DNA of 64,000 bases from Elusimicrobiota bacterium. Lineage in GTDB: Bacteria; Elusimicrobiota; Elusimicrobia; UBA1565; UBA9628. The notes beneath the pieces were generated by a model. That model did not search any database and had not been told where the DNA came from. It saw only the letters and a list, made by a program, of their open reading frames with translations. Positions 3,344 to 24,711 of the stretch are shown one piece after another (position 1 is the stretch's first letter; every line of letters starts with the position of its first letter). Location: positions 142,009-206,008 of the forward strand of contig DMMY01000016.1 of NCBI GenBank assembly GCA_003452935.1, written 5' to 3'. The position numbers and the translations under genes were made by a program.

Positions 3344-5890
3344 CTAGCGGGAGCTGCTCAGGCGCCGGGTGCGGGTCTCCTTGGCGTAGAACTCCAGCTG
3401 ATCGCCTTTCTGGAAGTCCTTGAAATTCTCGAAGTCCATGCCGCATTCCAGGCCCTTCTCCACTTCCTTGACGTCGTCCTTGAAGCGCTTGAGCGTCGAC
3501 ACGCGGCCCTCATATGCCACGCCCTCGCCGCGCTTGATGCGCACCAGGCTGCCGCGCACGGCCTTGCCGTCGCGGATCATGCAGCCCGCGACCTTGCCGG
3601 ACTTCACGCTGAAAATCTCGCGAATCTCGCCCTTGCCCACGATGACCTCCACGATCTCGGGCTCCAGGAGCCCCTCCAGCGCCGCCTTGACGTCGGCGAT
3701 AAGGTCGTAGATGATCTCGTACTTGCGCACTTCCACGCCCTCGCGCGCCGCCACTTCCTCGGCGCGAGGATCGATCGCGGCATGAAACAGCATGGTCACG
3801 GCGTCGGAGGCCGAGGCCAAAAGGACGTCGGACTCGTTGGCGTTGCCCACCTCGCCGTGGATGATGCGCACGCGGCATTCGGAGGTGGAAAGTCCCTCAA
3901 GGGAGTCCTTGAGGGCCTGCAGGGAACCCTGCACGTCGGCCTTGAGCACGATCTTGAGTTCCTTGGCCGCGGCCACGTTGCCGGCGGAAAGCTGGCTCTT
4001 GAGGCCGACCAGGGTCATGTGCTTCTGGTGCGCCAGGGACTGCTCGCGGTGGATGAGGGCGCGCCGCTCCGCGATCTCCCGGGCTTGGCGCTCGTCCTTG
4101 ACCACGTTGAAGGTGTCGCCCGCTTGCGGGGTGTTGATGACCCCGAGTATCTCGACGGGGGTCGCGGGCCCCGCCGCGATGATGCGCTTGCCGGTGTCGT
4201 CGTGCAGGGCCTTGACCTTGCCGAAAGCAAGGCCGGCCACGAAGGCGTCGCCCGGCTTGATCGTCCCGGCCTGGATCAGGACGTTGGCGACCACGCCTTT
4301 CTTGGGATCGAGACTGGCCTCCAGGACCACGCCGTAGGCAGGCCGGTCAGGATTGGCCTTGAGGTCGAGCATCTCTGCCTGCAGGGCCAGCATCTCAAGC
4401 AGCGTGTCGATGTGCAGTCGCTTCTTGGCCGAGACGTCGACGAAGATGTTCTTGCCGCCCCATTCCTCGGGCTGGATGCCGCGGTTGGCCAGCTCCTGTC
4501 GGATCTTCTGGGGGTTGGCGCCGGGCAGGTCGACCTTGTTGACCGCCACCACGATGGGAACGTCGGCGGCTTTGGCGTGGTCCAAGGCCTCGACCGTCTG
4601 AGGCATGACCCCGTCCGTCGCGGAAACGACCACGACGACGATGTCGGTCACCTTGGCGCCGCGCGCGCGCATGGCGGTGAAAGCCTCGTGACCGGGGGTA
4701 TCGAGAAAAACGATGTCGCCCTTGGAGGTGCGCACCCGGTAGGCGCCGATGTGCTGGGTTATGCCTCCGGATTCGCCCTCGGCCACGCGCGTGGAGCGGA
4801 TGGCGTCCAAAAGCGTGGTCTTGCCGTGGTCCACGTGCCCCATGACCGTGACCACGGGGGCGCGGGGCTTGAGAGATTCCGGCTTCTCCTCCTCGACATG
4901 GGCCGTTATCTCGGATTCCTTGTAAAGGGGTTGAAAGTCCAGCTCATAGCCGAAATCCTGCGCGACGATGGAGGCGGACTCGGGCTCCAGGCGCTGGTTG
5001 ATGGTGGCGAATATGCCCAGGTTCATGAGCTTCTTGATGACGTCTGGGGAACGGACTTCCATCTTCTCGGATAGGTCGCGCACGGTCATCAAGGTCGAGA
5101 CCTGAAGCTTCTTCAAAGCCGGCTTGGCCGCGGACGGCGCGGAGGAACGGGGCTCGACCGGCTTGGCCGGAACGGGCTGAGGAGCGGCCGCGTGTTTGGG
5201 CGCCGGCCGGCCTGGTCCGGCGGGCCGATGAACGCCCGGCCTGGCCCCGGGAGCCGGGAACCGGGCTCCGGCCGGAGGCCGGGGCGCCGGCGGGCCCGTC
5301 CTGACCGACGGAGGAACGGGGCGCGGCGGAGCGGGAGGAACCGCCGGCTTGGCTGCCGGTGGTGTCGGAGATTGCACCGCGGGTTTGGCCACGCTGGGCG
5401 CGGCCGGCAAAACCGTCGGCGCGGCAGCCGCTGGTTTTGCCGCAGGCGCGGAAGACGGTTTGGCGACGGGCGCCGGAGCAGGAGCCGCCGCTTGCGGAGC
5501 GGGCAACGGCGAAGGCGCCGGCTTGACAACGTCCGCCGCGGGGGGCTCCGGCTTGGGCGGCTTGGGAAGAGACGCCCCGGCCGCCAATCGCGTCACGGTC
5601 GGTCCGGTGGAATGCAGAAGCTTTTTCTTTTTGAACAGATCGAACGCGGAGACGAGGTTCTGTGACGGGGGAGCGATGGAGCCCTCCTCTTGGACGGCGC
5701 GGGTTTCGGCCGCGGTCTGGAGGATGCCCTGAGCGCCATTCTTCTCGCCCTTCTTGTCATGAGACCCCTTGGAGGTCTTCTTGGGGGCAGCGGGTTTGGC
5801 GGCCTTCTTGGCGGTTTTCTCCGTCTTTTCCACCTTGTCTTTGGCCGGCTTTTCCGCTTTTTTCTTCTCCATAATGTTCAATGATAGCAT
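3344..5890 (-). CDS. infB: Translation initiation factor IF-2
   Basis: GTPase G-domain [20 protein letters not shown] and the IF-2 C-terminal domains. Long Pro/Ala/Lys-rich N-terminal region. Confidence 0.95.
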
Positions 5891-5933: not shown

Positions 5934-7217
5934 CTATCTCTGCTCCTGCGGGGCCTGCCCGCTCATGTATTTCTTTGCGCTGGCTATGATCTTAGCCGCA
6001 GTCTTCTCGCCGATACCCTCCAGAGACGTCAACGCCTCGGGATCAGCCTCGGCCAGACGGGCCGGGTCCGCGAATCCCGCCCGGGCGAGAATTTCGGCGG
6101 TCTTGGCGCCGACGCCCTCTAAAACCGAAAGCGCTTCAACGGAGACGGAACCGCGGTCGTCGCCGGAAGCGGCCCCGGCCTGCGCGGGCGCCTCGCAGCG
6201 GACCTCTATCTCCCAACCAGTCAGCCGGCAGGCCAGGCGCACGTTTTGCCCGTCCTTTCCGATGGCCAGAGAAAGCTGCTCCTGCGAAACGAGCGCCTCG
6301 GCGCGCTTGTTCTCCGCGTCAAGCACGCGTACGGAGGCGACCTTGGCCGGAGCCAAGGAGTTGGCCAAAAACTTCGGGATATCCTCGTCGAAGAGGATGA
6401 GATCAATGCGCTCCCCGGCCAGCTCGTTCATGATGCTGCGGATGCGCGAGCCGCGCAGGCCCACGCAGGAACCCACCGGGTCCACCTTGGGGTCGTTGGA
6501 ACGCACCAGAACCTTGGCCCGGAACCCCGGGTCGCGCGCGACCTCCAATATTTCCACGATCTTCTCCCCGATCTCGGGAACCTCGAGCTCGAAGAGCCGG
6601 CGCAAAAACAGCGGCGCCGCCCGGGAGATGACGACCTGAGGCCCGCGCTGGGCCTTGTCCACGCGCAGGATGACCGCGCGGACGTTGCCGCCCACGTTGT
6701 AGCGCTCGCGGCGGATCTGCTCGCGCACGGGCAGAATGGCTTCGGTCTTGCCGATATCCACGACGATGTTGCGCTCCAGGAAACGGTGCACCGAGCCGGT
6801 GACCACCTCGCCTTCCTTGGGCTTGAACTCATCATAAAGAGTGTCGCGCTCCACCTCGCGGATCTTCTGGGCCAGGACCTGTTTGGCGGTCTGGGCCGCG
6901 ATCCGGGCGAAGTCGGTAACGGGCGCGGGCAGGCGCACGTCCTCGCCGATCGCTGCGTCTTTCTTGTAGCGCCTGGCCTCGGCCAAGGATATCTCCAGCT
7001 CCGGATCGGCCACAGCCTCGGCGACCTTCTTGACCACGTTAGCCCGGAACTCGGCCGTGTCGGGATCGATGGAAGCCTCGATGACCGTGGTCTTGCCCAC
7101 GTGCTTGCGCAGGGAGCTGACCACCGCGCCCTCGATCATCTTGAGAATATCGTCCTTTTTTATTCCCTTCTCGCGCTCGAGCTGCTCGAGCGCCAACACC
7201 AATTCTGATTTAGCCAT
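5934..7217 (-). CDS. nusA: Transcription termination/antitermination factor NusA
   Basis: MAKSELVLALEQLEREKGI N-terminus; S1 and KH regions; C-terminal HhH segment. Confidence 0.95.
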   Translation of the reverse strand: MAKSELVLALEQLEREKGIKKDDILKMIEGAVVSSLRKHVGKTTVIEASIDPDTAEFRANVVKKVAEAVADPELEISLAEARRYKKDAAIGEDVRLPAPVTDFARIAAQTAKQVLAQKIREVERDTLYDEFKPKEGEVVTGSVHRFLERNIVVDIGKTEAILPVREQIRRERYNVGGNVRAVILRVDKAQRGPQVVISRAAPLFLRRLFELEVPEIGEKIVEILEVARDPGFRAKVLVRSNDPKVDPVGSCVGLRGSRIRSIMNELAGERIDLILFDEDIPKFLANSLAPAKVASVRVLDAENKRAEALVSQEQLSLAIGKDGQNVRLACRLTGWEIEVRCEAPAQAGAASGDDRGSVSVEALSVLEGVGAKTAEILARAGFADPARLAEADPEALTSLEGIGEKTAAKIIASAKKYMSGQAPQEQR

Positions 7218-7223
7218 GGCGTG

Positions 7224-7679
7224 TTACACCTCCGCCCTGCAATCCAGCCGCGCCTCGTCGACAAGATCGAGGGGAAACTCGAAGTCCTTGCCCTCGCACT
7301 GTAAAAGGACCTTGCCCTCCCGCCAGCCTCGCAACAGGCCCTTGAAATTGCGCCGGCCATTCTCCGCGACCTTAAGGCGGACTTGCACCGCCTTCCCAGC
7401 AAAGCGAATAAAATCCTTCTCTTTCTTGATAATCCGATCCAAACCCGGGGATGAAACCTCCAAGACGTAAGAACCCTGGACCGCGTCGGCCTCGTCGAGC
7501 AAGGCGCCGATGCGGTTGGAAAGGTGCTCGCAGTCGTCCAAGGTGATGCCGCCCTCCTTGTCCAGATAGAAGCGCAGGATCTGCCGGCCGCTTTCGCGAA
7601 AAAACTCCAGATCCACCAACTCCGCCGCCTCCTGCGTCAACAGCGGCGCCACCAGCTCTTCTATGCGGCCCGCGTCCAT
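7224..7679 (-). CDS. rimP: Ribosome maturation factor RimP
   Basis: LVAPLLTQEAAELVDLEF ... SSPGLDR motif. ATG at 7679 is preceded by the GGGGGAAG SD. Confidence 0.85.
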   Translation of the reverse strand: MDAGRIEELVAPLLTQEAAELVDLEFFRESGRQILRFYLDKEGGITLDDCEHLSNRIGALLDEADAVQGSYVLEVSSPGLDRIIKKEKDFIRFAGKAVQVRLKVAENGRRNFKGLLRGWREGKVLLQCEGKDFEFPLDLVDEARLDCRAEV

Positions 7680-7694
7680 GCTTCCCCCGTGAAT

Positions 7695-7724
7695 AAAAAA
7701 AGTGGCTTGACGGCAGCCACTTTT
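7695..7724 (-). terminator. Leader hairpin plus U-tract (intrinsic-terminator/attenuator-like) between the promoter and the rimP RBS
   Basis: On the transcript strand: aaaagtggc-ugccgucaa-gccacuuuuuuua. A GC stem flanked by an A-tract and a U7 tract, ending ~15 nt before the rimP ATG. Confidence 0.55.
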
Positions 7725-7743
7725 CATGGTTGATGCTGATAAA

Positions 7744-7773
7744 ATAATACTAAACTAGCCCGTCGTCTGTCAA
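7744..7773 (-). promoter_or_regulatory. Sigma70-like promoter of the rimP-nusA-infB operon (TTGACA-18-TATTAT)
   Basis: Minus-strand TTGACA at 7773-7768 and TATTAT at 7749-7744. Confidence 0.55.
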
Positions 7774-7784
7774 ATTCGCTGAGT

Positions 7785-7900
7785 GCCGGAGATCACCTTT
7801 TTTCAACTTGTTGGAATTATTTTTTGCACATCGCAAAAAATCATTAACACTCAACCTTATTTTTCAAAACAAGTTGAATAAGTCCAACAAGTTGATCTCC
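7785..7900. repeat. 116-bp AT-rich element bounded by 13-bp terminal inverted repeats (gTGCCGGAGATCA), with three CAACTTGTTG-type motifs inside
   Basis: 7786-7797 tgccggagatca is the reverse complement of 7888-7899 tgatctccggca. The interior is far more AT-rich than the flanks. ttcaacttgttgga occurs once forward and twice reversed. Confidence 0.6.
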
Positions 7901-7907
7901 GGCACCG

Positions 7908-8990
7908 CTAAGGGGCTTCGGCGCTCTGGGATTTGCGCGCGGCACGGCCGTCGCGCAGACGCAAGACGTCGCTGTAGGTGGCGAATATAAGCAGCAGGAC
8001 CAGGAGGACAATGCCCACGCTGTTGGCCTTGCTGAGAATATCGGGCGTAAGGCGCCGGCGCGAGATGCCTTCCCACACATACATCACCGCGTGGCCGCCG
8101 TCGAGCAGAGGCACGGGCAGGAGATTGAAGAAACCGATGGCCACCGAGATGATCCCGATGAGAAAGACCAGATCCTCCCAGCCCGAGTGCGCGGCCCGGC
8201 TGACCATCTGCACGATGCCCACGGGTCCGGCCAAGTCCGGCCGCTGGCGGCGGTATATCTTGGAAAGGATGGTCTTTAGCGTGAAGGCGGTCAGGGCATA
8301 GCATTGCCCCACGCCCTCGCCCATGGCGCCCAGCAAGCCCACGGGCTTATAGATGGATTGCGGCTGGATGCCGATCACGCCGAAGTTATGGGTTTCGTCG
8401 AGTTTGGGCGTGATCCTCACGACCTGTTCCACGCCCTCGCGGCTGTAAACGACCTTGATCTCCCGATTCGGACTTTTGTGGATGGCGTCCGAGAGCTGCT
8501 TCCAATCCGCCATGGCCGCGCCGTCCACTGACACGATCCGGTCGCCGATGCGCAGGCCGGCGCGGTCCGCCGGGTAGCCGACCATCATGTTGCCGATGAC
8601 CGCCTCGCTGCCCGGCTCGGGTATGCCCTTGATGTAGACGACCCCGGTGAAAAGGAAAAAAGCCAGGACATAGTTCATGGCCGGCCCGGCCAGGACAATG
8701 GCGAGCCGGCGGTGCCAGGCTTGGCCGAAGTACTCGTCGGGCTTGCCGCCGCAAGTGTCCAGCTCCTCGCCGGCGGGCTTGACGAACCCGCCCAAGGGCA
8801 GGGCGCAGAAGGAATAGCGGGTCCCGCCCCGCGTCACTCCGAAAAGCTCCGGGCCCATGCCGAAGGCGAACTTCTCCACGCGCACGCCGAGGCGGCGGCA
8901 CATGAGGAAGTGCCCCAGCTCATGCAGGAAAATAACCAAGCCGAAGGTGAGCACCACCGCGGCCGCGGACTGCAGGTAATAGATGTTCAT
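7908..8990 (-). CDS. rseP: RIP zinc metalloprotease RseP (site-2 protease, M50) with a PDZ domain
   Basis: HELGHFLMCRRLGV (HExxH) and LDGG motifs. Start trimmed to MNIYYLQ at 8990, overlapping the dxr stop (ATGA). Confidence 0.9.
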   Translation of the reverse strand: MNIYYLQSAAAVVLTFGLVIFLHELGHFLMCRRLGVRVEKFAFGMGPELFGVTRGGTRYSFCALPLGGFVKPAGEELDTCGGKPDEYFGQAWHRRLAIVLAGPAMNYVLAFFLFTGVVYIKGIPEPGSEAVIGNMMVGYPADRAGLRIGDRIVSVDGAAMADWKQLSDAIHKSPNREIKVVYSREGVEQVVRITPKLDETHNFGVIGIQPQSIYKPVGLLGAMGEGVGQCYALTAFTLKTILSKIYRRQRPDLAGPVGIVQMVSRAAHSGWEDLVFLIGIISVAIGFFNLLPVPLLDGGHAVMYVWEGISRRRLTPDILSKANSVGIVLLVLLLIFATYSDVLRLRDGRAARKSQSAEAP

Positions 8991-12338: not shown

Positions 12339-13052
12339 TTACTCCGTGATCCAGGTCCCGACTTTCTTTCCGCAAGCCGCCTTGGCGATATTGCCCTCGA
12401 CGGCCAGGGCGAACACCGCGATGGGCATGCGGTTCTCCAAACATAGGGTCAAGGCCGTGGCGTCCATGACGCGCAGACGGCGGCGGATGGCCTGCATGAA
12501 GGTCACCCGGGAAAGCTTCCTGGCCCGGGGATTGGTCTTGGGGTCGTCGCTGTAGACCCCGTCGACCTGCGTGGCCTTGAGCAGGACGTCGGCCTCTATC
12601 TCGACGGCGCGCAGGGCCGCGGCCGTATCCGTCGTGAAATAGGGATTGCCCGTGCCGCCCGCGAATATGACCACGCGCCGCTTCTCCAGGTGCCGGATGG
12701 CGCGGCGGCGGATGTAAGCCTCGGCGAGCTTGGCTATCTCGATGGCCGTCTGCACCCGCGTAGGCACGCCCTGATCCTCGAGCGCGTCCTGCAGGGCCAG
12801 GGCGTTGATGACGGTCGCGAGCATGCCCATGTAATCGGCCGTGACCCGGCCGATGGCTTGGCCGCGGTCCTTGGCCCCGCGCCAGATGTTGCCGCCTCCC
12901 ACCACGACCCCGATCTGGCTGCCGTGGGACCAGGCGCGCTTGATCTCGGTCGCGATGCGCACCAGGGAGGGGGAATCAATGCCGCGCTTGGCCCCGCCCC
13001 CCAGGGATTCCCCGGAAAGCTTGAGCAGGACGCGCCGAGCTTTGGCTGGCAT
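12339..13052 (-). CDS. pyrH: UMP kinase
   Basis: RVLLKLSGESLGG ... GVVVGGGNIWRG. Confidence 0.95.
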   Translation of the reverse strand: MPAKARRVLLKLSGESLGGGAKRGIDSPSLVRIATEIKRAWSHGSQIGVVVGGGNIWRGAKDRGQAIGRVTADYMGMLATVINALALQDALEDQGVPTRVQTAIEIAKLAEAYIRRRAIRHLEKRRVVIFAGGTGNPYFTTDTAAALRAVEIEADVLLKATQVDGVYSDDPKTNPRARKLSRVTFMQAIRRRLRVMDATALTLCLENRMPIAVFALAVEGNIAKAACGKKVGTWITE

Positions 13053-13894
13053 TATTCGCCGAGCGTGTAGCGGGCGAAGCGGACGACCTTGACCTCGCCG
13101 CCGGCCTTGGAGGAGGCTTCCTTAATAATGCTGGATACCGGAGTCTTGTTGTCGCGCACGCTCATTTGCTCGAGCAGGCAAAAGGCCTGGTAAAAAAGCT
13201 TATTAAGCTTGCCTTCCAGTATCTTGCCGATGGCGGCCTCGGGCTTGCCTTCCTTGCGCAAAATCTCGGTGTGGATCTCCCGCTCCTTGGCCACGTCCGC
13301 GGCCGGGACGTCCTCCCGGCGTAAATACTTGGGCGAAAAGCCCACGATCTGAAGCAGAAGCTCCTTGGCCAACTCGGCTACGGCCGGATGCTGGGACGCG
13401 GCCGCGCTGGAGGCCGAGAGCTCGATCAAAGCGCCCTTCTTGGCGCCCAGATGGATGTAGCCCGCGATAAGACCCTCGCCCGAAAGCTCGAAGCGGTCCA
13501 AACGGCGCAGTCCCATATTCTCGCCCATCTTGCCCTGGACCGGCTGGACCAGGGGCAGGCCGTCCTCTACCCGGCGCAACTCGCCGCCGGCGGCCTTGAC
13601 GGCCAGAGTCTCGGCCAGTTTCTTGAACTCGTCGGTGCGCGCCACGAAATCCGTCTCGCAGTTGAGCTCCACGATGGCTCCGGACTTGCCGCATACGTGG
13701 AAGGCGACCGCGCCTTCCTTGGTGGCCCGGGCCGAGCGCTTGGCAGCGTCGGCCAAGCCCTTCTTGCGCAGGGCGGTCAAGGCGTCGTCTAGCCTGCCGC
13801 CCGCTTCCTCGAGCGCTTTCTTGCAGTCCGTCATGCCCGCTCCCGTCTTCTCGCGCAGCTCCTTGATAAGTTGGCCCAGTTCCATTGTCGCCAT
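13052..13894 (-). CDS. tsf: Elongation factor Ts
   Basis: TGAGMTDCKKALEEAGGRLDDALTALRKKG UBA-like N-terminus and EF-Ts dimerisation domain. Confidence 0.9.
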   Translation of the reverse strand: MATMELGQLIKELREKTGAGMTDCKKALEEAGGRLDDALTALRKKGLADAAKRSARATKEGAVAFHVCGKSGAIVELNCETDFVARTDEFKKLAETLAVKAAGGELRRVEDGLPLVQPVQGKMGENMGLRRLDRFELSGEGLIAGYIHLGAKKGALIELSASSAAASQHPAVAELAKELLLQIVGFSPKYLRREDVPAADVAKEREIHTEILRKEGKPEAAIGKILEGKLNKLFYQAFCLLEQMSVRDNKTPVSSIIKEASSKAGGEVKVVRFARYTLGE

Positions 13895-13896
13895 GG

Positions 13897-14802
13897 CTAT
13901 TCGAGCTCCTCGGCCACTTCGGCCAGCACGCGAGTCTTGGCCCGGCCCTTGGGCTTGGCCTTGGGAGCGGCGCCCTCGGGGCGCATCTCCTTCTCCCAGG
14001 CGTCCATGGCGTCCTCCATGGGCTGCTCCTCGGCCGAGACGGCTGCGGCCTCCGCGGTCTCGCCGGCCAGCATCTGCTGCTCGGCCTCGGCCACGGTGGA
14101 GGCGCTCTGCGCCGCGGCGTATGCGGCGGCGCCCTCGGCCACGGCGTCGGCGATCAGGCCGCAGAAAAGCTTGATGGAACGCGCCGCGTCATCGTTGCCC
14201 GGCATGGGATGGTCGATCAAGTCCGGGTCGCAGTCCGTGTCGCAGACGGCCACGATCGGGATCTTGAGGCGCCGCGCCTCGGCCACGGCCAGTTCCTCCT
14301 CGACGGAGTCGACCACGAACATGATGTCGGGAAGCTTGGTCAGCAAGCGGATGCCGGTCAGGACCTTCTTAAGGCGCGCCATCTCCTTGCCTAGGCGCGC
14401 GGCGTCCTTCTTGGGCATGACGCCCAGGATGCCGTCGGCCTGCCACTTCTCTATTTCCTCCAGCCGCTTGATGGAACGGCGGATGGTCATGAAGTTGGTC
14501 AGGGTGCCGCCGAGCCACTTATCCGAGACATAGGCCGCGCCGCAGCGCTGCGCCTCGGCGCGCAGTATCTCCTGGGCCTGTTTCTTGGTGCCGACGAAAA
14601 GGAAGGACTTGCCCGCGGCCGCCTGGTCGCGAACCCAGGCGTAGACCTTCTTGATCTCCTTGACGGTCTTCTGCAGGTCGATGATGTGGATGGCGTTGCG
14701 CTCGCCGAATATGAACCGGCTCATCTTCGGGTTCCAGCGCCGGGTCTGATGGCCGAAGTGAACTCCGGCCTCCAACATGGCCTTCATGGATACATTGATC
14801 AT
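13897..14802 (-). CDS. rpsB: 30S ribosomal protein S2 with an extended acidic/Ala-rich C-terminal tail
   Basis: [27 protein letters not shown]. Roughly 60 extra C-terminal residues rich in A/E/K. Confidence 0.95.
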
Positions 14803-14942
14803 CCGCTGTGCTTATCCTCCGTGACTCCTGTGAATTGACTCCAAAATCCGGACAGTTAGTGATATTAGCAAATTCCCGGATATTTTGTCACGCCCATTTC
14901 CGGATCTTATATAGGAAATAACCGTTACCGAGGAAAACGGGC

Positions 14943-15875
14943 CTAGGCGCGGGCCCGGGCCGCCATGCAGGGCAGATGCGACGCCGCGTAGGCGCGCCAA
15001 GCCGGCTCAAAGCCGCGCATATGCTCCAGGCCCTGACGCGCGCCCAGCAGCGGCACGTCCACGCAGGAGCGGACCTTATCGGTCAGCAATATCGCTTCCT
15101 TGGGCCGGCGCGCCGGGGATTTGAAATCAGAGATCGACGCGGCCCTCACCAGTGACGCGTCGAGTCCGAAACAGCCGGCCGCCATGGCCGCCAGCTCATG
15201 ACGGCTCGCCGCGTCCGGACCCACCACGTGAAAAATCCCGCCCCGGTCCTTTTCGCTCAAAGCGACGGAGACCTCGGCGAGGTTCTCGGCGTAGGTGGCG
15301 GTGACCCGCGAGTCCGAGGCCGCCCGAACCTCAGCTCCGGCCCTGAGCCGTCCCAACACCTGCAACACGAAATTCTTGGGCTCCCATTGCCAGCCGAAAG
15401 CCGCAGCCGTGCGCAACACGAAGTTCCGTGAAGACGCGGCCAGGACCAGTTCCTCGGCCTCGGCTTTCTGCCGGCCGTACTCGTTGAGGGGGCAAACCGC
15501 GTCGTTTTCCTTATAAACGCCCTTGCGGCCGTCGAAGACATAATCCGAGGAGAAGAAGATCATCCGCGCGCCGATGTCTTGGCAGGCCCGGGCCACGTTG
15601 AAAGTCCCGGCCACGTTGACGCGCCGGGTCTCATCCGGATGAAGCTCGCAATAATCCACATGGGGATTGGCCGCGGGCACGGCCACGACTTCCGGGACCA
15701 GGCTCTCCAGGACGCGGCGCACCGCGCGCTCGTCTTGCATGTCGAGCCGGCTGAAATGCGGGCACGGATGGCAGTGGAACGTCGCGCCCACGACCCGGCG
15801 GCCGCGCCTGTCCCAGGCCCGCATGAGAGCGTTGCCCACCAAGCCCGTGCCGCCGATAACGAAAATTCCCGCCAT
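14943..15875 (-). CDS. NAD(P)-dependent sugar-nucleotide reductase, RmlD (dTDP-4-dehydrorhamnose reductase)-like
   Basis: GGTGLVGNAL Rossmann motif; FFSSDYVFDG ... YGRQKAEAE (the STDYVFDG / YxxxK signature of RmlD). Confidence 0.65.
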   Translation of the reverse strand: MAGIFVIGGTGLVGNALMRAWDRRGRRVVGATFHCHPCPHFSRLDMQDERAVRRVLESLVPEVVAVPAANPHVDYCELHPDETRRVNVAGTFNVARACQDIGARMIFFSSDYVFDGRKGVYKENDAVCPLNEYGRQKAEAEELVLAASSRNFVLRTAAAFGWQWEPKNFVLQVLGRLRAGAEVRAASDSRVTATYAENLAEVSVALSEKDRGGIFHVVGPDAASRHELAAMAAGCFGLDASLVRAASISDFKSPARRPKEAILLTDKVRSCVDVPLLGARQGLEHMRGFEPAWRAYAASHLPCMAARARA

Positions 15876-15912
15876 AGGGCAGGCATTATAACATATGTGC
15901 CTAAAATCCTAT

Positions 15913-15941
15913 TGACATGAATGTCGCATAGAAGTATATTC
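15913..15941 (+). promoter_or_regulatory. Sigma70-like promoter TTGACA-17-TATATT for the OM barrel/gmd genes
   Basis: TTGACA at 15913-15918, a 17-nt spacer, TATATT at 15936-15941. AGGAGA RBS at ~15963, ATG at 15975. Confidence 0.6.
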
Positions 15942-15974
15942 TCAAGGCAAATTTACTGTTCAAGGAGAATGCGA

Positions 15975-17231
15975 ATGAAGCGTCTCGCCTGTAATGTCGC
16001 AGCACTTGTCCTGGCCTTAGCAAGCCTGCCGGCCTTTGCCGAGTCCGACAAGCCCAACATCAAGCTCGGGCAATTGGCCCTGCATCCCTTCTATGGGATC
16101 GCGGCGACCTACGACGACAACATCTACCTCGTGCCGCGCAACATCGACAACCACGCGGTGCAGGGCGGCGGCATCCGCGGTTCCTGGATCATGACCAACC
16201 GGCTCGGCTTGGGAGCGGAACTCCCCGTAGGCGAGATGAACAAGTTCAAGGCCGACTACGAGGTCCGTTCCGACGTATACAAGACCCAGCCCTCGGCCAA
16301 CAACGCCATCTCCCAGAAGGCCAACGGCTCATACGACTTCAAGGGTTCCTGGCTCAAGGCCCGTATTTTCGACAGTTACATCAACACCCAGGACCCGGCC
16401 TTCAACCCCAACAACACCGCCGTGGCGGGCGAACTCGTGGCCCGCGAGCGGCGCTGGCAGAACACGGCCGGCGCCTCGGCCGAGTACTTCCTCGGCGAGA
16501 AGTTTTTCATCGGCGCCGACGGTTCGGACACGGTGCAGAAATACCTCAGCAAGGTCCTGAGCAAGAAGCTCAACCGCTCCGAAGTCGTCTTCGGATTCAA
16601 GACCGGATACAAGCTCGCGCCCAAGACCCGCCTCTACGTCGCGGGGCACCGCTCCATGACCCATTACAACGCGGGCGTCGCCGCGGACCACGTGGCCAAC
16701 AGTCGCGCCTGGCTCGCGGACGCGGGCGTCGAGGGCGAGTTGACCCCCAAGCTCAAGGGCCAGATCCAGGGCGGTTTCGTCTACCGGCAGCACGACCACG
16801 ACAACGCCTTCGCCCTGAGAAAATCCGTGGCGCGCACCTGGACCACCATGGTCAGCCTGGATTTCAAGCCCACGCAAAGCGACACGATCAAGCTCTCGGC
16901 TAACCGCGGCTTAGTCGACGCGATCACGGGCGGCAACTACTACACCACCACCGGCGGCACCCTGGACATCGCCCACACCTTAAACAAGGTGACCTTCGGC
17001 CTCAACGGCGGCGCGCAGAACGACAAATACTCCGAGGTGATCACGGCCGGCGGCTTGACCGCGCAGCGCCGCGACAACACCTACTCGGTCGGCGCCAAGC
17101 TCGACTATAAGATCCAGGAGTGGCTCATCGCCAGCGCCAACTACAAGCGCCTGGCCCGCTACTCGAACTTCAGCCGCGAGTACAACTACAAGGACAACCG
17201 CTCAACGGTCGAGCTCAAGCTCGCCTTCTGA
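15975..17231 (+). CDS. Outer-membrane beta-barrel protein, polysaccharide-locus associated
   Basis: Signal peptide MKRLACNVAALVLALASLPAFA, alternating beta-strand pattern, C-terminal ...VELKLAF. Start trimmed to the ATG at 15975 behind the RBS. Confidence 0.55.
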   Translation: MKRLACNVAALVLALASLPAFAESDKPNIKLGQLALHPFYGIAATYDDNIYLVPRNIDNHAVQGGGIRGSWIMTNRLGLGAELPVGEMNKFKADYEVRSDVYKTQPSANNAISQKANGSYDFKGSWLKARIFDSYINTQDPAFNPNNTAVAGELVARERRWQNTAGASAEYFLGEKFFIGADGSDTVQKYLSKVLSKKLNRSEVVFGFKTGYKLAPKTRLYVAGHRSMTHYNAGVAADHVANSRAWLADAGVEGELTPKLKGQIQGGFVYRQHDHDNAFALRKSVARTWTTMVSLDFKPTQSDTIKLSANRGLVDAITGGNYYTTTGGTLDIAHTLNKVTFGLNGGAQNDKYSEVITAGGLTAQRRDNTYSVGAKLDYKIQEWLIASANYKRLARYSNFSREYNYKDNRSTVELKLAF

Positions 17232-17243
17232 GCCGATTAGCCG

Positions 17244-18329
17244 GTGAAAACAGCCCTTATCACGGGGGTAACCGGCCAGGATGGCGCATACCTGGCCGAG
17301 TTCCTCCTTAATAAAGGATACGAGGTCCACGGCATCAAGCGTCGGACCTCGCTGTTCAACACCAACCGCATAGACCACCTCTTCCAGGACCCGCACGAGA
17401 AGAAGCCGCGCTTCATCCTGCACTACGGGGACATGACGGACGCGACCAGCCTCATCCACACCGTGGGCAAGATCCGGCCCGACGAGATATACAACCTCGC
17501 GGCCCAAAGCCACGTGCAGGTGAGCTTCGAGAAGCCCGAATACACGGCCAACGCCGACGGACTGGGCACCCTGCGCATGCTGGAAGCCGTCCGCATATTG
17601 AACCTCGAAAAAAAGACCCGCCTCTACCAGGCCTCCACCTCGGAGCTCTACGGCAACGTCGGCGGCGCGTCCCAGGATGAGAACACGCTGTTCAGGCCCC
17701 GGTCCCCATACGCCGCGGCCAAGCTCTACGCCTTCTGGATCACGGTCAATTACCGCGAGGCCTACGGCCTCTACGCGTGCAACGGCATCCTCTTCAACCA
17801 CGAGTCCCCGATCCGCGGCGAGACCTTCGTCACGCGCAAGATCACCCGCGGCCTGGCCCGCATCAAGCTGGGCCTGCAGGACACGCTGTTCCTGGGCAAC
17901 CTTGACTCCCGGCGCGACTGGGGCCACGCGCGCGACTACGTGGAGATGATGTGGCTCATGCTCCAGCAGCCAGAGCCCGACGACTACGTGGTGGCGACCG
18001 GCGAGCAGCACACGGTGCGGGAATTCGTCGACGCCGCGGCCCGGGAGCTTTCCATGTCCCTGCGCTGGACGGGCAAGGGCGTGGCCGAAAAAGCGTTCTG
18101 GGGCAAGCGCGCCACGCCCGTCGTGTCCGTGGATCCGCGCTACTTCAGGCCCACGGAAGTGGAAAGCCTCTGCGGCAACGCGGCCAAGGCGCGCAAGAAG
18201 CTCGGCTGGAAGCCGCGCACCACTTTTCTCGAGCTGGTCCAAGAGATGGCCCGCGAGGACCTCCTGCGCGCCAAGAAAGAGCTGCTTTTCACCAAGCACG
18301 GCTACCCGGCCCTGCGCCGGCACGAATAG
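17244..18329 (+). CDS. gmd: GDP-mannose 4,6-dehydratase
   Basis: [43 protein letters not shown], a canonical GMD N-terminus. GTG start. Confidence 0.9.
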
Positions 18330-18368
18330 CCCGGCGTTTGCAGTCAGGAAGACTACAACTTCCGGATA

Positions 18369-18397
18369 TTGACATTTTTCCGCTTAATACTTAATAA
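18369..18397 (+). promoter_or_regulatory. Sigma70-like promoter TTGACA-17-TAATAA upstream of wza
   Basis: TTGACA at 18369-18374 and TAATAA at 18392-18397. Confidence 0.5.
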
Positions 18398-18464
18398 ATA
18401 TCCTATTTATATTATCATGTATAAAAGAATACACCTTTTAACTGGAAATAGCCGGCCCGGCAAG

Positions 18465-18473
18465 TGATATAAT
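18465..18473 (+). promoter_or_regulatory. Extended -10 (TGaTATAAT) 9 nt upstream of the wza ATG, implying a near-leaderless transcript
   Basis: gtgatataat at 18464-18473; ATG at 18483; no SD in between. Confidence 0.45.
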
Positions 18474-18482
18474 CTTCTAGCT

Positions 18483-19151
18483 ATGAAACGAATTTTTCCG
18501 ACCTTCTGCGCCCTGGCACTGGGCCTGCAAGCCTGCGCCGGGATTAAACTGGGCTCTCCGAACTCGCCTGCGTCGCGCTCAACCTCCTCCCAGGAAAAGG
18601 CCGAGGAAGCCGCGCTGCAGTCCGTGCTGCAGAATCTCCAGACCAAAAAATCCGACTACAAGCTGGGCGGCGCGGACTTGATCGAGATCACGGTGTTCCA
18701 GCAGCCGGAGATGAGCCGCAGCCTGCGCGTGAGCCAAAACGGCACGATCACGTTTCCCTTGATCGGCACGGTGAAGGTAGGGGGGCTTTCGGTCGCCGAA
18801 GCCGAAGAAGCGCTCTCCACGAAACTCAAGGACTACGTCATCAGCCCGCAGATCACGATCTTCATCAAGGAATACGGCAACAAGAAGGTCTTCGTGCTGG
18901 GCGAGGTGACCAAGCCGGGCTCCTTCGAACTGCCCACCGAAGCCAAGCTGACCGTGCTGGAAGCGATTTCCTTAGCAGGAGGATTCACCGGCATCGCGGC
19001 ACCGGACCGCACCAAGGTGATCCGCAACATCGACGGCAAGAGCCAAAGCTTCAAGATCGTGGTCTCGGACATCACCTCGCGGGGGGAAAAGCACAAGGAC
19101 ATCCCCCTGGAGCCCAACGACGTGGTCTGGGTGCCGCAGAGCTTTTTCTAA
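18483..19151 (+). CDS. wza: Polysaccharide export outer-membrane lipoprotein, Wza-like (Poly_export + SLBB)
   Basis: Lipobox LGLQAC; FPLIGTVKVGGLSVAEAEEAL and GEVTKPG motifs of the polysaccharide export family. Confidence 0.8.
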   Translation: MKRIFPTFCALALGLQACAGIKLGSPNSPASRSTSSQEKAEEAALQSVLQNLQTKKSDYKLGGADLIEITVFQQPEMSRSLRVSQNGTITFPLIGTVKVGGLSVAEAEEALSTKLKDYVISPQITIFIKEYGNKKVFVLGEVTKPGSFELPTEAKLTVLEAISLAGGFTGIAAPDRTKVIRNIDGKSQSFKIVVSDITSRGEKHKDIPLEPNDVVWVPQSFF

Positions 19152-19212
19152 ATTTTCTCACCTCGATTTTCCCGCATGCCATATAAACCCCTAAGAGCAA
19201 ATTCGCCCGAAT

Positions 19213-19221
19213 TGCTATAAT
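19213..19221 (+). promoter_or_regulatory. Extended -10 box aattgcTATAAT at the left edge of the low-GC island
   Basis: TG at 19213-14 and TATAAT at 19216-21. An identical aattgctataat string recurs at 24560-24571. Confidence 0.4.
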
Positions 19222-19365
19222 TATTAAAATTTCGTTGTCGACTTTTAATTTAATAATCGACAGTGTTTTAATTTATCCGCGATTCAGCTCCTTGACTTTT
19301 GCCGGCAGGTTTTGCAACTCAGCATAGATTGATATCGAAAATTCATAGAGATAAATATCGATTAA

Positions 19366-20451
19366 ATGAAGCATTCAAGAATACAAAGAACGATCCCTGT
19401 CAATAAAGGGAACTATTCAATGGAAACCCCGGAGCGGGAGGCATTATTTGACCATTTTCGCGGCGAGGGCTGGGAAAAGGAATATTGCAATTACCGCCAA
19501 AATTGGGTTAGCTACCCCTCGAAGCAATTTATTTCCGATTACCCCTTACTGGTTGACATTGAGCTCTCCACTCGCTGCAATCTGCGCTGCCCGATGTGCT
19601 ACACGATAACCAATGAATTCAAAAAAAGGGTAAAGCCCCGCTTGATGGGATTTGGCCTTTTCACCAAAATTATCGATGAAATACGAGGAAAAGTTCCAGC
19701 GATTAGACTAAGTCTACGCGGAGAGCCCACCATTCATCCCAAATTCATCGCTTGCGTCGATTATGCCAAACGAAGCGGCATTCAAGAAGTATCAACTCTG
19801 ACCAACGGCAGCACACTTTCAACAGAATTTATTTTAAAGATGATGCAGGCCGGCATTGATTGGTTAACCATATCAGTGGATGGCCTGGATGGAACGTATG
19901 AGAGCATCCGTCGGCCTCTAAAATTCAGGGCCCTTCTACAAAAACTAAAAGATATCAAGAGAATTAAGGATAAAACAGGGGCTCACAAACCCGTCGTCAA
20001 GATTCAATCCATCTGGCCGGCAATCAAGCAGAATCCCGAGAACTTCTACAACACCCTTTCTCCGTATGTTGATCTGATCGCATTTAATCCATTGATTGAC
20101 TATCTCGGCAAGGACGAGGAAATAGTCTACGAAAACAACTTCATTTGCTGCCAATTATACCAACGTCTTGTCGTGGGCGCTAACGGAGGCGCGATGATGT
20201 GCTCCAACGACGAAGACGGGACTATCATCGTCGGAGATGCGGAGAAACAAAGCATTCATAGCATCTGGCACGGATCCGCATTGAACAAACTCCGGGCCGT
20301 CCATCGGAAAAAGAATGGTTTTCTTCAGATAGCGGTATGTCGCAAATGCTATCTTCCGCGCTTGACCGAAGAAAGCGAGACCGCTCAAATCAACGGCCGC
20401 GAATTCACGATCAAGAATTACGTCAACAGAAATCAAAGAATCGGTCAATAA
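19366..20451 (+). CDS. Radical SAM / SPASM-domain protein no. 1
   Basis: CNLRCPMCY (Cx3Cx2C) near the N-terminus, plus a C-terminal Cys cluster (FICCQLY...MMCSND...AVCRKCY) of SPASM/twitch type. The start could be the ATG at 19420. Confidence 0.8.
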   Translation: MKHSRIQRTIPVNKGNYSMETPEREALFDHFRGEGWEKEYCNYRQNWVSYPSKQFISDYPLLVDIELSTRCNLRCPMCYTITNEFKKRVKPRLMGFGLFTKIIDEIRGKVPAIRLSLRGEPTIHPKFIACVDYAKRSGIQEVSTLTNGSTLSTEFILKMMQAGIDWLTISVDGLDGTYESIRRPLKFRALLQKLKDIKRIKDKTGAHKPVVKIQSIWPAIKQNPENFYNTLSPYVDLIAFNPLIDYLGKDEEIVYENNFICCQLYQRLVVGANGGAMMCSNDEDGTIIVGDAEKQSIHSIWHGSALNKLRAVHRKKNGFLQIAVCRKCYLPRLTEESETAQINGREFTIKNYVNRNQRIGQ

Positions 20452-20469
20452 TTATTTAAAGGGAATGCC

Positions 20470-21495
20470 ATGAAACCGACCTTCAACTTTCCATCCTTAG
20501 GGCCCGCCTACATCATCGCAGAGATCGGCGGGAATTTTACAAATGCCCGAGAAGCGACAGCTCTCATTGACGCGGCCGCCGATTGCAATGTCAACGCCAT
20601 AAAACTTCAGACTTACAGAGCAGAAACCATCGCGAGCCGAAAAGCCATTTTCGACATGGAGAATACCGGCGTCACGTCTCAATTCGACTTATTCAAAAAA
20701 TACGAGATCGACAAGAAGCTGCATCATGACGTTTTTAATTACGCGGCCAGACGGGGATTGGATTATTTTTCAACCCCCTCGCACGAATCCGACGCGGACA
20801 TGCTTGAAGGACTGGGCGTGGCGGTCTACAAAATCGGGTCCGACGATGCGGTTAATCTCCCATTCTTGCGCTACGTCGCGCGCAAGGGCAAGCCCATGAT
20901 TCTCGCCACAGGAATGTGTACCATGGACGAAGTGCGCGATTCCGCGCGTGTTGTTCGTGAAGCCGGATGCCCCCGGCTCATTCTGCTTCATGCCATTACG
21001 AGTTATCCGACCCACGCTGAGCATGTCAACCTGGCCGCCATGCAGGCCATGATGCGTGAATTCCCGGACTTGGAGGTCGGTTATTCAGACCACACTCTCG
21101 GCATAACGGCATGCATTTGCGCCGCGGCCATGGGGGCGCGGGTTCTGGAAAAACATTTTACCTGCGATAAGCATGCCCCAGGACCGGATCACATGCTTTC
21201 CGCCGACCCCGCCCAAATGAAAGAGCTTGTGCAAAGGGTTCGCGAATTTGAACTCATGCGGGGAAATGGCATCAAGCAACCGGCGTTATCTGAAGAAAAA
21301 ACTCGCCTCAACAATCGCAAAAGCATAGTACTCATGCACGCGATCTCCAAAGGGGAAAGGCTGACGCCCTCCCACCTCGCCGTCAAACGCCCTGGGCACG
21401 GCATCGCTCCGCGGCACCTGCCCGAACTGCCTGGCCGATCCGTCAACAAGGACATGAAGAGAGACGACATCCTTTCCTGGGAGGACTTAGACTGA
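20470..21495 (+). CDS. N-acylneuraminate/pseudaminate synthase family (NeuB/PseI-like) with a C-terminal SAF domain
   Basis: YIIAEIGGNF ... AIKLQTY ... VAVYKIGSDD ... GKPMILATGM NeuB signature blocks. Confidence 0.85.
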   Translation: MKPTFNFPSLGPAYIIAEIGGNFTNAREATALIDAAADCNVNAIKLQTYRAETIASRKAIFDMENTGVTSQFDLFKKYEIDKKLHHDVFNYAARRGLDYFSTPSHESDADMLEGLGVAVYKIGSDDAVNLPFLRYVARKGKPMILATGMCTMDEVRDSARVVREAGCPRLILLHAITSYPTHAEHVNLAAMQAMMREFPDLEVGYSDHTLGITACICAAAMGARVLEKHFTCDKHAPGPDHMLSADPAQMKELVQRVREFELMRGNGIKQPALSEEKTRLNNRKSIVLMHAISKGERLTPSHLAVKRPGHGIAPRHLPELPGRSVNKDMKRDDILSWEDLD

Positions 21496-22202: not shown

Positions 22203-23167
22203 CTTTCGCTATTTGCGCGGAATCTTCGCATCAACGAGGCATGGGGCATATTTTCCGCGCGATAAACTTTCACTCATATCTGAAGGCGAAAGGGGAAGCC
22301 TGCGTTATCTTAACCAACCCCCATGCGCCGGCTGAAGACGCGCTGCGCAAGAACAGCGTTCAATTCGACTTGATAGACCTTAACAACGAGCAAAGCCAAT
22401 GGGAACGCATCCTCATCTCCCGTCACAGAATCGATGTTTGGATTAACGACCGCCTAACTACCGGGAAAGCTCACGCCTTAAGGGTCAAAAACGCAGGCGC
22501 CAAACTAATCACGATGGATGATCACGGTCCCGGAGCAGATTTGAGCGATCTTCATGTGGCCAGCCTATCTTTCTCAGAATCAGAGCCACCACGAGGCCGC
22601 AGGGTGCTGCAAGGCATTGATTACCTGATCTTAAGTCCGCACATTATCGCGCGGCGCCGCCTCCGAAGGACTCTGGAACGGATCGTTATTTCCTTGGGAG
22701 GCAGCGATACATACGGCGTCACGGTCAAAGTCGCCATTCTCCTAAGAGAGCTGAACTATTCGGCCGTCATTCATCTCGGCCCCGCATTCGCCCACCACGA
22801 TGCGCTCGCGGCATTGCTCGGAGACAATCTCTCGGTAACGGAAAACATCCCATCGTTGGTTGATTTGTTTTCAGATTTCGATCTAGCCATCACAGGTGCC
22901 GGCGTGACCCCTTTCGAAGCCAACGCGGCGGGCTTGCCGGCACTAGTCATAGCCAACGAGCTCTTTGAAATACCCAACGGCAAGCTGCTGCATGCCGCAG
23001 GATCCGCTTTTTTTATGGGCCATCACAAAAACCTTTGCCGTCATCAAATGCAGGCAGGACTTTCCTACGCCGCCGCCCACCTCGAAGAAATGAGCCGACG
23101 AGGCATGGAACGATTTTCTCCTCAAACAGCTTTCGAGAGAATATTTAAAGAAATTAAGAATATATAA
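22199..23167 (+). CDS. PseG-like UDP-sugar hydrolase (GT28 C-terminal-like)
   Basis: N-terminal AICAESSHQRGMGHIFRAINF resembles PseG (R.DSSSQIG.GH). C-terminal ISLGGSD...ITGAGVTPFEANAAGLPALVI block. Confidence 0.55.
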   Translation: MTFAICAESSHQRGMGHIFRAINFHSYLKAKGEACVILTNPHAPAEDALRKNSVQFDLIDLNNEQSQWERILISRHRIDVWINDRLTTGKAHALRVKNAGAKLITMDDHGPGADLSDLHVASLSFSESEPPRGRRVLQGIDYLILSPHIIARRRLRRTLERIVISLGGSDTYGVTVKVAILLRELNYSAVIHLGPAFAHHDALAALLGDNLSVTENIPSLVDLFSDFDLAITGAGVTPFEANAAGLPALVIANELFEIPNGKLLHAAGSAFFMGHHKNLCRHQMQAGLSYAAAHLEEMSRRGMERFSPQTAFERIFKEIKNI

Positions 23168-23168
23168 T

Positions 23169-23855
23169 ATGACTGCCGTCATCCACCAACCAGATTTCTT
23201 GCCCTATCTCGGATTTTTCCATAGATTACTTCAGGCACATTTGTACGTAATCCTGGACCACGTTCAATTCGTATACGGCAGCAGAAGTTGGACCAGCAGG
23301 GATAAGATAAAGACTTCCCAAGGAGCAAAATGGCTGACCGTACCGATAAAAAAATGCGCGCAGGCGACGCCGATCGATCAAGTAATGCTTTCCAACACGG
23401 ACTGGCGCCAAACCCATCTTAACTTATTGTTCGAAAACTACCGCTCCACCCCATTCTTTGAGGAAATATTGCCCCATATAGAGGCTCTCTATCAGTTTCA
23501 GTGCGAACGCCTGGTAGATTTCAACCTTGCCTCAATCAATATGCTGAATCATCTTTTTGGCATCTCCATTCCATCCGCCCTCTCCAGCAGCCTGAAACCT
23601 GCGGGAAAAAGCAACGAGTTGCTCGTTGACATTCTTAAAAAAGTCAATGCGACCACATATCTTTCAGGAATCGGGGCGAAAGCTTACTTCGATCCCAAGC
23701 CGTTCGAAACCGCAGGCATACGCGTTATTTGGCAGAATTTCTCTCATCCAGTTTATCTACAATGCCACGGCCCCTTCATTGCGTCTCTGAGCAGTATCGA
23801 CCTGCTTTTTAATTGCGGCATAGCGAAATCACGCGAAATACTAAGGAGCTGCTAA
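23169..23855 (+). CDS. WbqC-like family protein (O-antigen-cluster associated, function unknown)
   Basis: MTAVIHQPDFLPYLGFF start typical of WbqC-family proteins. Confidence 0.55.
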   Translation: MTAVIHQPDFLPYLGFFHRLLQAHLYVILDHVQFVYGSRSWTSRDKIKTSQGAKWLTVPIKKCAQATPIDQVMLSNTDWRQTHLNLLFENYRSTPFFEEILPHIEALYQFQCERLVDFNLASINMLNHLFGISIPSALSSSLKPAGKSNELLVDILKKVNATTYLSGIGAKAYFDPKPFETAGIRVIWQNFSHPVYLQCHGPFIASLSSIDLLFNCGIAKSREILRSC

Positions 23856-24481: not shown

Positions 24482-24562
24482 AGCGCCGACCTCTGGTAAA
24501 ACCTGCCAACAAGGCCCAGCTTTTCAATGCATCGGATTACGCATCATATTCCTAATGGCAAT

Positions 24563-24571
24563 TGCTATAAT
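24563..24571 (+). promoter_or_regulatory. Extended -10 box aattgcTATAAT upstream of wzc
   Basis: TG at 24563-64 and TATAAT at 24566-71 in a 230-bp AT-rich spacer. Confidence 0.4.
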
Positions 24572-24711
24572 AATGAACACGATAACATCTTTATTCAGAT
24601 AGAGTGGCAAACGCAGATTTAACAATTCACAGTATTACGGCCTGAAAAAAAGAGAAACAAATAACGGGCGAGAGCCCTTGATTTCCAGACTCATTTGACT
24701 GAAGAGCCCCC

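Follow-up and report, generated by a model that had tools for sequence, protein, structure and literature searches.

What does the spacer between rseP and rimP hold, and which of its parts belong to the control of the rimP-nusA-infB operon? We addressed this question in a 64,000-nucleotide stretch of an Elusimicrobiota bacterium genome, referred to as the window, in which the spacer covers 228 nt (7680-7907) and all genes around it lie on the minus strand. In Escherichia coli, the metY-rimP-nusA-infB operon is repressed by NusA. The whole spacer of the window folded better than shuffled controls on both strands (z = -5.0 and -5.7). Our analysis indicates that it probably consists of two inherited parts, a promoter and an attenuator, and one acquired part, a palindromic element located between the rseP stop codon and the promoter.

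The AT-rich palindromic element upstream of rimP

The palindromic element is 123 bp long (7783-7905, no strand assigned) and was recognised by its inverted repeats, its low G+C content and its absence from relatives. A repeat search revealed perfect 13-nt terminal inverted repeats, GTGCCGGAGATCA, on the minus strand at the rseP side (7893-7905) and on the plus strand at the promoter side (7783-7795), enclosing an interior of 97 bp. The G+C fraction of the element is about 0.29, compared to about 0.6 in the flanks; 2 nt separate the element from the rseP stop codon on one side, and 9 nt from the -35 hexamer of the rimP promoter on the other. Inside the terminal repeats, imperfect arms (7803-21 and 7877-95) are 95% complementary, and the arms extend over about 30 nt. 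The rseP-side repeat continues inward as ACTTGTTGG ACTTATTCA ACTTGTTTT with a 9-nt periodicity, and the promoter-side arm has an additional CCTTTTTTCA relative to the rseP-side arm. An inner hairpin, found as an inverted-repeat pair without strand assignment, lies at 7815-7845 and is formed by AATTATTTTTTGC (7815-27) and GCAAAAAATCATT (7833-45), separated by 5 nt. As RNA, the element has a folding energy of -51 kcal/mol. Its inverted repeat is the sole spaced long inverted repeat in the 64 kb, and no long inverted repeat was seen in any of the remaining low-GC islands of the window. Only very short open reading frames were present, and the element is thus non-coding. Three CAACTTGTTG motifs, at 7804, 7867 (with one mismatch) and 7885, sit in the arms with the 9-nt periodicity ACTTRTTNN; allowing at most one mismatch, the window holds nine matches to this motif compared to 2.35 expected.

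The element was absent from all relatives and from all of the 80 rimP loci (80/80) that we took from species-representative genomes. At least six close relatives, with 70-78% RimP identity, have rseP adjoining rimP; their spacers measure 99 to 135 nt with a distance of 5-31 nt from the stop codon to the -35 hexamer, and none of them contains the element. Without the element, the spacer of the window would be 105 nt long (228-123), which is inside the range of these relatives. Furthermore, the rseP stop codon of the window aligned with the stop codons of the relatives, and removal of the element together with one flank copy left TAG-CGAAT-TTGACA, close to the TAA-AGGCGG-TTGACA of L005. Since the element is absent from the relatives and its removal restores their spacer length, these comparisons argue that it is a lineage-specific insertion and not part of the ancestral control region, which we consider probable. 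An identical RimP is encoded on four contigs of different samples, and the spacer is identical on all four; the RimP sequence is also identical to that of a groundwater Elusimicrobia metagenome-assembled genome.

An earlier note on this DNA had described a 116-bp AT-rich block delimited by 13-bp perfect inverted repeats and holding three CAACTTGTTG-like motifs. The repeats and the motifs were recovered, but the size had to be revised to the 123 bp given above. The same note had offered two interpretations, a MITE-like insertion (miniature inverted-repeat transposable element) or a structured operator or UP region, and had set beforehand a comparison of orthologous intergenic regions. The result was the opposite of a single-copy element conserved in all relatives. 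It favours the insertion, together with the restored spacer length and the related palindromes found at other loci, and it speaks against the operator or UP region, the block not being conserved in relatives. The insertion would have taken place upstream of the promoter and the attenuator, leaving both intact, and neither would need the element. Its effects may be passive: it would put a -51 kcal/mol hairpin 2 nt past the rseP stop codon, at the 3' end of the rseP read-through RNA, and the DNA upstream of the -35 hexamer would be that of the element and no longer rseP coding sequence.

Related palindromes at other loci and the possible mode of their spread

The search for other copies, also proposed beforehand, had a divided outcome: the 13-mer GTGCCGGAGATCA has no further copy in the window at zero or one mismatch, whereas diverged family members were found at L101, L097 and L013. 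The 67-bp member in L101 (21266-21332) is located on the contig of the window, 5.4 kb before window position 1 and 13.2 kb away from the copy at rimP. Its perfect inverted repeat measures 17 nt (TGCCAGACGTGAACTTT) and its ends are GGTGCCAGACGTGAACTTTTGAAACTTATTCAG...CTGAAAGTTCACGTCTGGCATCC. The genes on either side of this member are divergent, and it is the only copy not preceded by a TAG. A complete 88-bp member with a 29-nt perfect inverted repeat (GTGCCGGACATAGACTTATAGACTTATTG) occurs on L097 (2056-2143), an Elusimicrobia-like contig obtained via Tag homologues, where it starts directly after a TAG stop codon. With r=0.855, the tetranucleotide correlation between L097 and the window was below the 0.94-0.95 obtained inside the window and in the range of 0.80-0.90 obtained for other Elusimicrobia. 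In JGI metagenomes, a pattern scan yielded a half-copy of 40 nt in L013 (843-804), which is 85% identical to the rseP-side arm and is located directly past a TAG stop, with a cytosine deaminase gene on one side and tag on the other. The next TAG is followed by a 12-nt remnant. The arms of the family could be aligned to GTGCCRGA-N4-5-ACTTDT-N1-2-RACTTATT and are about 75-85% identical between copies, with TGCCRGA...TCYGGCA at the ends and subterminal ACTTDT/RACTTATT motifs, whereas the centres are unrelated. Because related palindromes occur at other loci and the element is absent at rimP of relatives, the element most likely belongs to a small dispersed family of non-coding, non-autonomous palindromic repeats of the MITE/REPIN-like kind (REPIN, a doublet of repetitive extragenic palindromic (REP) sequences).

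The pattern used for finding copies was GTGCCGGAGATCA, a gap of 0-10 nt and ACTTGTTGG. It gave no matches in the species-representative genomes, which lack the source species (best RimP match 78%), and four matches in the JGI metagenomes. L013 was the one true relative among these four, and the other three were chance matches inside coding DNA encoding VPEI.... A family-level pattern had no matches in viral contigs, and an nhmmer profile of seven arms found no further copy in the DNA examined. Extension of the contig by 8.2 kb on one side of the window added no family copy, and extension by 6.7 kb on the other side added one, that in L101. The context of L013 was not reproduced in the contigs of Tag homologues.

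Two observations were made in passing on these contigs. L097 carries, at 12446-20657, a Cas12b/C2c1-like gene, BrnT/BrnA and PIN toxin-antitoxin genes and AbiEii, and this region looks like a defence or mobile island. In L013, a frameshift within eight consecutive A at about 525-540 interrupts the tag gene (3-methyladenine glycosylase I, minus strand); this reflects either an assembly error or a pseudogene.

How the family may move was considered from its structure. The element resembles a MITE in being small (123 bp) and non-coding, in having 13-nt terminal inverted repeats, and in having an empty site in related genomes. With the bacterial MITEs Correia/NEMIS of Neisseria, ERIC/IRU of Enterobacteria and MITEAba12, it shares a length of about 70-150 bp, terminal inverted repeats, a long imperfect palindrome, an intergenic position close to promoters or gene ends, presence or absence between related genomes, a core similar to the integration host factor (IHF) site in one arm, and possibly a short target duplication. 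It differs from them in that no cognate insertion sequence (IS) was found in the DNA examined and in that its copies are diverged and do not represent a recent burst. Its target duplication is not clear-cut either. The candidate copies of a 6-bp target-site duplication, read from the sequence on the minus strand, are TTAGCG at 7906-7911, which includes the rseP stop, and TCAGCG at 7777-7782.

A possible but clearly less favoured view is that the element is a REP doublet, i.e. a REPIN or bacterial interspersed mosaic element (BIME), moved by a REP-associated tyrosine transposase (RAYT, Y1/HUH), with the TAG in front serving as the REP tag or guide tetranucleotide. NTAG adjoins four of the five left ends (TTAG+CG in the window, CTAG and TTAG in L013, and ATAG in L097). 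The defining feature of REPs is a conserved tetranucleotide, in most cases GTAG, and a gap of 2 nt can separate it from the stem (PMC8266576). GTAG-tagged REPs often provide the TAG stop codon of the flanking open reading frame (PMC3733652). In REPINs, two inverted units flank a spacer of variable length and sequence that nonetheless forms a hairpin (PMC3337134), which fits the 67-, 88- and 123-bp members with their unrelated centres. In addition, the element is like REPINs, BIMEs and GTAG-tagged REPs in being non-coding and extragenic, with inverted conserved ends, a variable hairpin-forming spacer, a G+C-rich foot (GCCGGA...TCCGGC) and a TAG stop often at the left end. However, a REP is a palindromic unit of 20-50 nt, whereas here the whole 67-123-bp element alone is palindromic; the single arms are not self-palindromic, and the solo arm of L013 has no hairpin. 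The AT-rich interior also sets the element apart. The tag is NTAG and not GTAG, and neither L101 21266 nor the right-hand ends have it. The 6-nt flanks, nearly matching each other both in the window and in L097, instead suggest duplication by a DDE transposase. Neither a RAYT-like nor an IS200-like open reading frame was found in the DNA examined, and tblastn with RAYT and IS608 TnpA gave nothing there, which is a weak test. The mobilising enzyme may be of either the MITE or the REPIN type, and we therefore use the label MITE/REPIN-like palindromic repeat.

A bolder view is that the TGCCRGA palindromes make up a repeat family of Elusimicrobia not described so far, with a preference for landing on TAG stops or beside them, as at four of the five left ends. 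Together with the idea of a protein-binding leader stem described below, we hold this to be rather doubtful.

The rimP promoter and leader hairpin

Downstream of the element, a consensus scan identified TTGACA as the -35 hexamer (7768-7773, minus strand), which is kept in the relatives, and TATTAT as the -10 hexamer (7744-7749, minus strand). The promoter TTGACA-18-TATTAT (7773-7744) matches the consensus at 11 of 12 positions. Among 46 Elusimicrobia rimP loci, 38 matched TTGACA-N17-19-TATAAT at 10 or more of 12 positions, and the spacing between the -10 hexamer and the downstream U-run fell into two classes, 41-48 nt or 54-69 nt. The conservation in 38/46 loci at fixed distances from the hairpin described next means that the promoter is a real one by comparative criteria, of the ordinary sigma-70 type and conserved. 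An extended -10 TG is present in 32 of the 38 relatives and missing from the window; lacking this TG and having TATTAT in place of TATAAT, the promoter of the window looks weaker than the ancestral one. The promoter geometry predicts a transcription start at 7736-7737 (minus strand), 7-8 nt past the -10 hexamer.

The leader contains a terminator-like hairpin (7698-7724, minus strand), identified as an inverted-repeat pair and by folding and alignment, in which AAAAGUGGCU and AGCCACUUUU enclose the 7-nt loop GCCGUCA. The stem GUGGCU/AGCCAC is lengthened by A-U pairs and followed by seven U (whole structure 7724-7695), the U-run itself (7695-7701, minus strand) overlapping the 3' end of the hairpin and being nearly invariant in 46 sequences. 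The stem has 6-10 bp and the folding energy is -13 kcal/mol. A consensus terminator scan did not flag this hairpin, although the stem and the U7 are plainly present, and folding of the 58-nt leader revealed no strong alternative fold that could act as an antiterminator. The U-run ends 6 nt ahead of the Shine-Dalgarno sequence GGGGGA of rimP (7683-7688, minus strand, read from the sequence) and 15 nt ahead of the ATG.

The leaders of 45 Elusimicrobia species were extracted, and the hairpin alignment comprised 46 sequences, 45 of them distinct. In the consensus, AAAGUGGC and GCCACUUUUUUUAUUG enclose a loop of 5-10 nt. In the core GUGGC/GCCAC, four G-C pairs are invariant in the 45 distinct sequences, and changes on both sides occur in four outer pairs. 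Paired cells made up 94.9% of the alignment, and the pairing fell to 38-70% when the 3' partners were slid along it. The observed covariation score was reached by none of 500 shuffles. The motif has one match in the 64-kb window and, across 602 kb scanned, occurs essentially in rimP leaders only. The promoter and hairpin of the window could be aligned with those of relatives at 70-78% RimP identity; the remainder of the spacer has diverged. Both are retained whether the upstream gene is rseP or another gene, or whether a further 1.8-2.1 kb intervenes upstream, and therefore both belong to rimP and not to the upstream operon. The earlier note had proposed the TTGACA-18-TATTAT promoter and a GC stem with U7 acting as a leader terminator, and these two proposals hold for this locus and across about 45 Elusimicrobia species. 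It had also placed the end of the U7 about 15 nt before the rimP ribosome-binding site, a value that turned out to be the distance to the ATG.

Searches against Rfam gave no match to the leader hairpin at gathering scores over the whole window. With E values up to 10, the segments 7600-8000 and 7670-7760 returned chance matches only, to microRNA precursors and terminator-bearing small RNAs. Rfam likewise had no match on 20 non-Elusimicrobia rimP loci and the GGGC-type leader L088.

Among transcription attenuators, the rimP-leader has been described as the most widespread; it is a short terminator whose GGGc...gCCC stem shows unusual conservation and is followed by a U-stretch (Naville & Gautheret 2010, PMC2965389). 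It lies 4-130 nt from the start codon, is operon-specific and has no antiterminator, and NusA was proposed as its most likely effector (PMC2965389). The hairpin of the window occupies the same place, in the 5' untranslated region of rimP-nusA-infB and 15 nt from the start codon. Elusimicrobia leaders have in common with this attenuator a short hairpin and a U-stretch, a G-rich 5' arm and a C-rich 3' arm, the lack of a visible antiterminator, and an unusually conserved stem whose motif is specific to this leader. They differ in the core, which is GUGGC...GCCAC with a 5-10-nt loop and falls outside the published motif. Non-Elusimicrobia loci in the same set have an AGUGGGC...GCCCGCU stem. On these similarities, the hairpin with U7 is likely to be an Elusimicrobia sequence variant of the known rimP-leader attenuator, a class already described.

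Variations on the leader were also noted. A subset of Elusimicrobia, not including the window, adds a 5' hairpin and a CUUUCUUAAGGAG linker to the attenuator. This 'long' leader class (L029, L032-L034, L036, L038, L041, L042, L045-L048, L051 and L054) lies about 70-90 nt upstream of rimP and contains an extra 5' hairpin, made of CGCCCCCC, a loop and GGGGGGCG, and the conserved linker CGCUUUCUUAAGGAG, whose Shine-Dalgarno-like AAGGAG overlaps the 5' arm of the terminator; it may be a more elaborate regulatory leader. Outside Elusimicrobia, the leader terminators of L074, L076, L077, L079-L083, L087 and L088 start with RAAAGUG(G/A)G...CUUUUU, for example GAAAGUGGGCaccGCCCGCUUUUUUU, and AGUG at the 5' foot is therefore common across phyla.

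By analogy with the described systems, transcription would start about 7 nt past TATTAT, near 7737, giving a leader of about 58 nt, and RNA polymerase would reach the GUGGCU/AGCCAC hairpin and U7 after about 40 nt. A fraction of the transcripts would stop at the hairpin, and most are expected to do so. The remainder would continue into rimP-nusA-infB. NusA, encoded at 5934-7217 on the minus strand (TIGR01953, E=8e-117), is the presumed effector and would probably raise the terminated fraction, so that it may limit its own synthesis in a negative feedback. In Bacillus subtilis, NusA is autoregulated via NusA-stimulated termination in its own 5' leader, as summarised in a passage of PMC12288461 that cites Mondal 2016.

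Several points weigh against this account of an inherited attenuator next to an inserted repeat. The stem departs from the published core and no Rfam model matches it, and both premature termination and NusA dependence are carried over to the Elusimicrobia leader from E. coli and B. subtilis. As for the insertion, about 79 kb of the source genome hold two family copies only, which are diverged, with no near-identical copy there, and no transposase was found in the DNA examined. The 6-nt flanks are unevenly identical, at 5/6 positions in the window (TTAGCG/TCAGCG), 4/6 in L097 (CAATAG/CCATAC) and 2/6 in L101. A loss of the element in a common ancestor of the relatives is possible but less parsimonious, the outgroup L018 being without it as well.

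The remaining readings of the locus fared less well. NusA or RimP could bind the phylum-invariant GUGGC/GCCAC stem in a sequence-specific manner, the site then differing from the GGGC type of other phyla; jointly with the TAG-directed repeat family described above, this appears unlikely. It is somewhat less likely still that the hairpin and U7 chiefly terminate the upstream rpsB...rseP row and are not a regulated rimP attenuator. In the window and its close relatives, there is indeed no other terminator between the rseP stop and rimP, and the A-tract, stem and U-tract are symmetric enough for termination in both directions. However, with a strongly conserved promoter upstream of the hairpin and the rimP ATG 15 nt away from it, every rimP transcript has to pass the hairpin. 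It is also kept together with the promoter whichever gene lies upstream, and its stem is invariant across the phylum, which is atypical of ordinary terminators (PMC2965389).

We also considered whether the AT-rich block serves the rimP promoter as a regulatory region of its own, namely a CAAC-N2-GTTG operator for a dimeric factor, an IHF/Fis bending site or an UP element. Its end 9 nt upstream of the -35 hexamer, its three near-palindromic CAACTTGTTG motifs and one exact match to the IHF core, ATCAANNNNTTR, would be consistent with such a role, and upstream activation could compensate for the lost extended -10 TG that most relatives have kept. Nevertheless, no relative has the block, in contrast to the conserved promoter and hairpin. 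The CAACTTGTTG motifs are arms of the palindrome, with related arms at unrelated loci. The IHF core occurs 10 times in the window, too common to carry weight, and positions -44 to -57 are occupied by the G+C-rich terminal repeat and not by an A/T-rich UP element. A regulatory origin of the block is thus quite improbable.

The idea that the element ends encode a small peptide (from a GTG at 7905, VPEINLLDLFNLF followed by a stop; in the L013 copy, VPEIKLLDLLDLFSI and a stop overlapping the tag start) draws on five of six mismatches between the window and L013 arms falling at third codon positions (p about 0.02, our own calculation), but it is highly implausible, as the frame has no Shine-Dalgarno sequence, ends in L097 after six codons (VPDIDL and a stop), is not preserved in L097 and L101, could owe its period of three to the 9-nt arm periodicity alone, and has other pattern matches in unrelated coding DNA only.

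Three further candidates were rejected. A sigma-54 promoter at the promoter-side repeat (CCGGCAC...) was judged by eye to misfit the GG-N10-GC spacing. GTTGGAC and GTCCAAC fit the loose GTTRRRY core of an integron attC, but there is no array or integrase context. A superficial likeness between an element arm and an IS1 end (GGTGATGCTGCCAACTTACTGAT) was treated as coincidence.

Gene neighbourhood and biological meaning

The gene upstream of the spacer, rseP, encodes a RIP metalloprotease of 360 aa (7908-8990, minus strand) and was identified by gene calls and NCBIfam (TIGR00054, E=4e-66), with the stop codon TAG at 7910-7908. It is the last gene of the row rpsB-tsf-pyrH-frr-uppS-cdsA-dxr-rseP. 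Downstream of the spacer, rimP (151 aa, 7224-7679, minus strand) and infB (842 aa, 3344-5872, minus strand) were both identified by NCBIfam, with nusA between them. Elsewhere in the window, two clusters of low-GC islands (18322-20770 and 23081-25031) have G+C fractions of 0.23-0.38 compared to 0.57 overall, again lack long inverted repeats, and are possibly horizontally acquired genes. Two neighbouring G+C-rich hairpins with arms of 16-17 nt and loops of 3 nt are located at the window start (16-50 and 94-130). Past window position 64000, L099/L100 (1-9800) contains HTH_3/Gp49-type gene pairs and several open reading frames without a Pfam match, with a G+C fraction of 0.67, above that of the window.

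For the repeat, the locus offers a clean example of a small palindromic sequence that sits between a stop codon and a housekeeping promoter and disrupts neither. If the palindromes do land preferentially at TAG stops, a strong hairpin 0-2 nt past the stop would tune the translation termination or the 3'-end stability of the upstream gene, and at the rimP locus it would uncouple the rpsB...rseP row from the rimP promoter. The findings on the attenuator and the repeat leave the current understanding of these systems unchanged. The likely assignment of the leader hairpin would extend the range of the rimP-leader attenuator to an uncultivated phylum, in a distinct and strictly conserved form that is missed by Rfam models, and this form may aid annotation and provide a basis for asking what recognises the stem.

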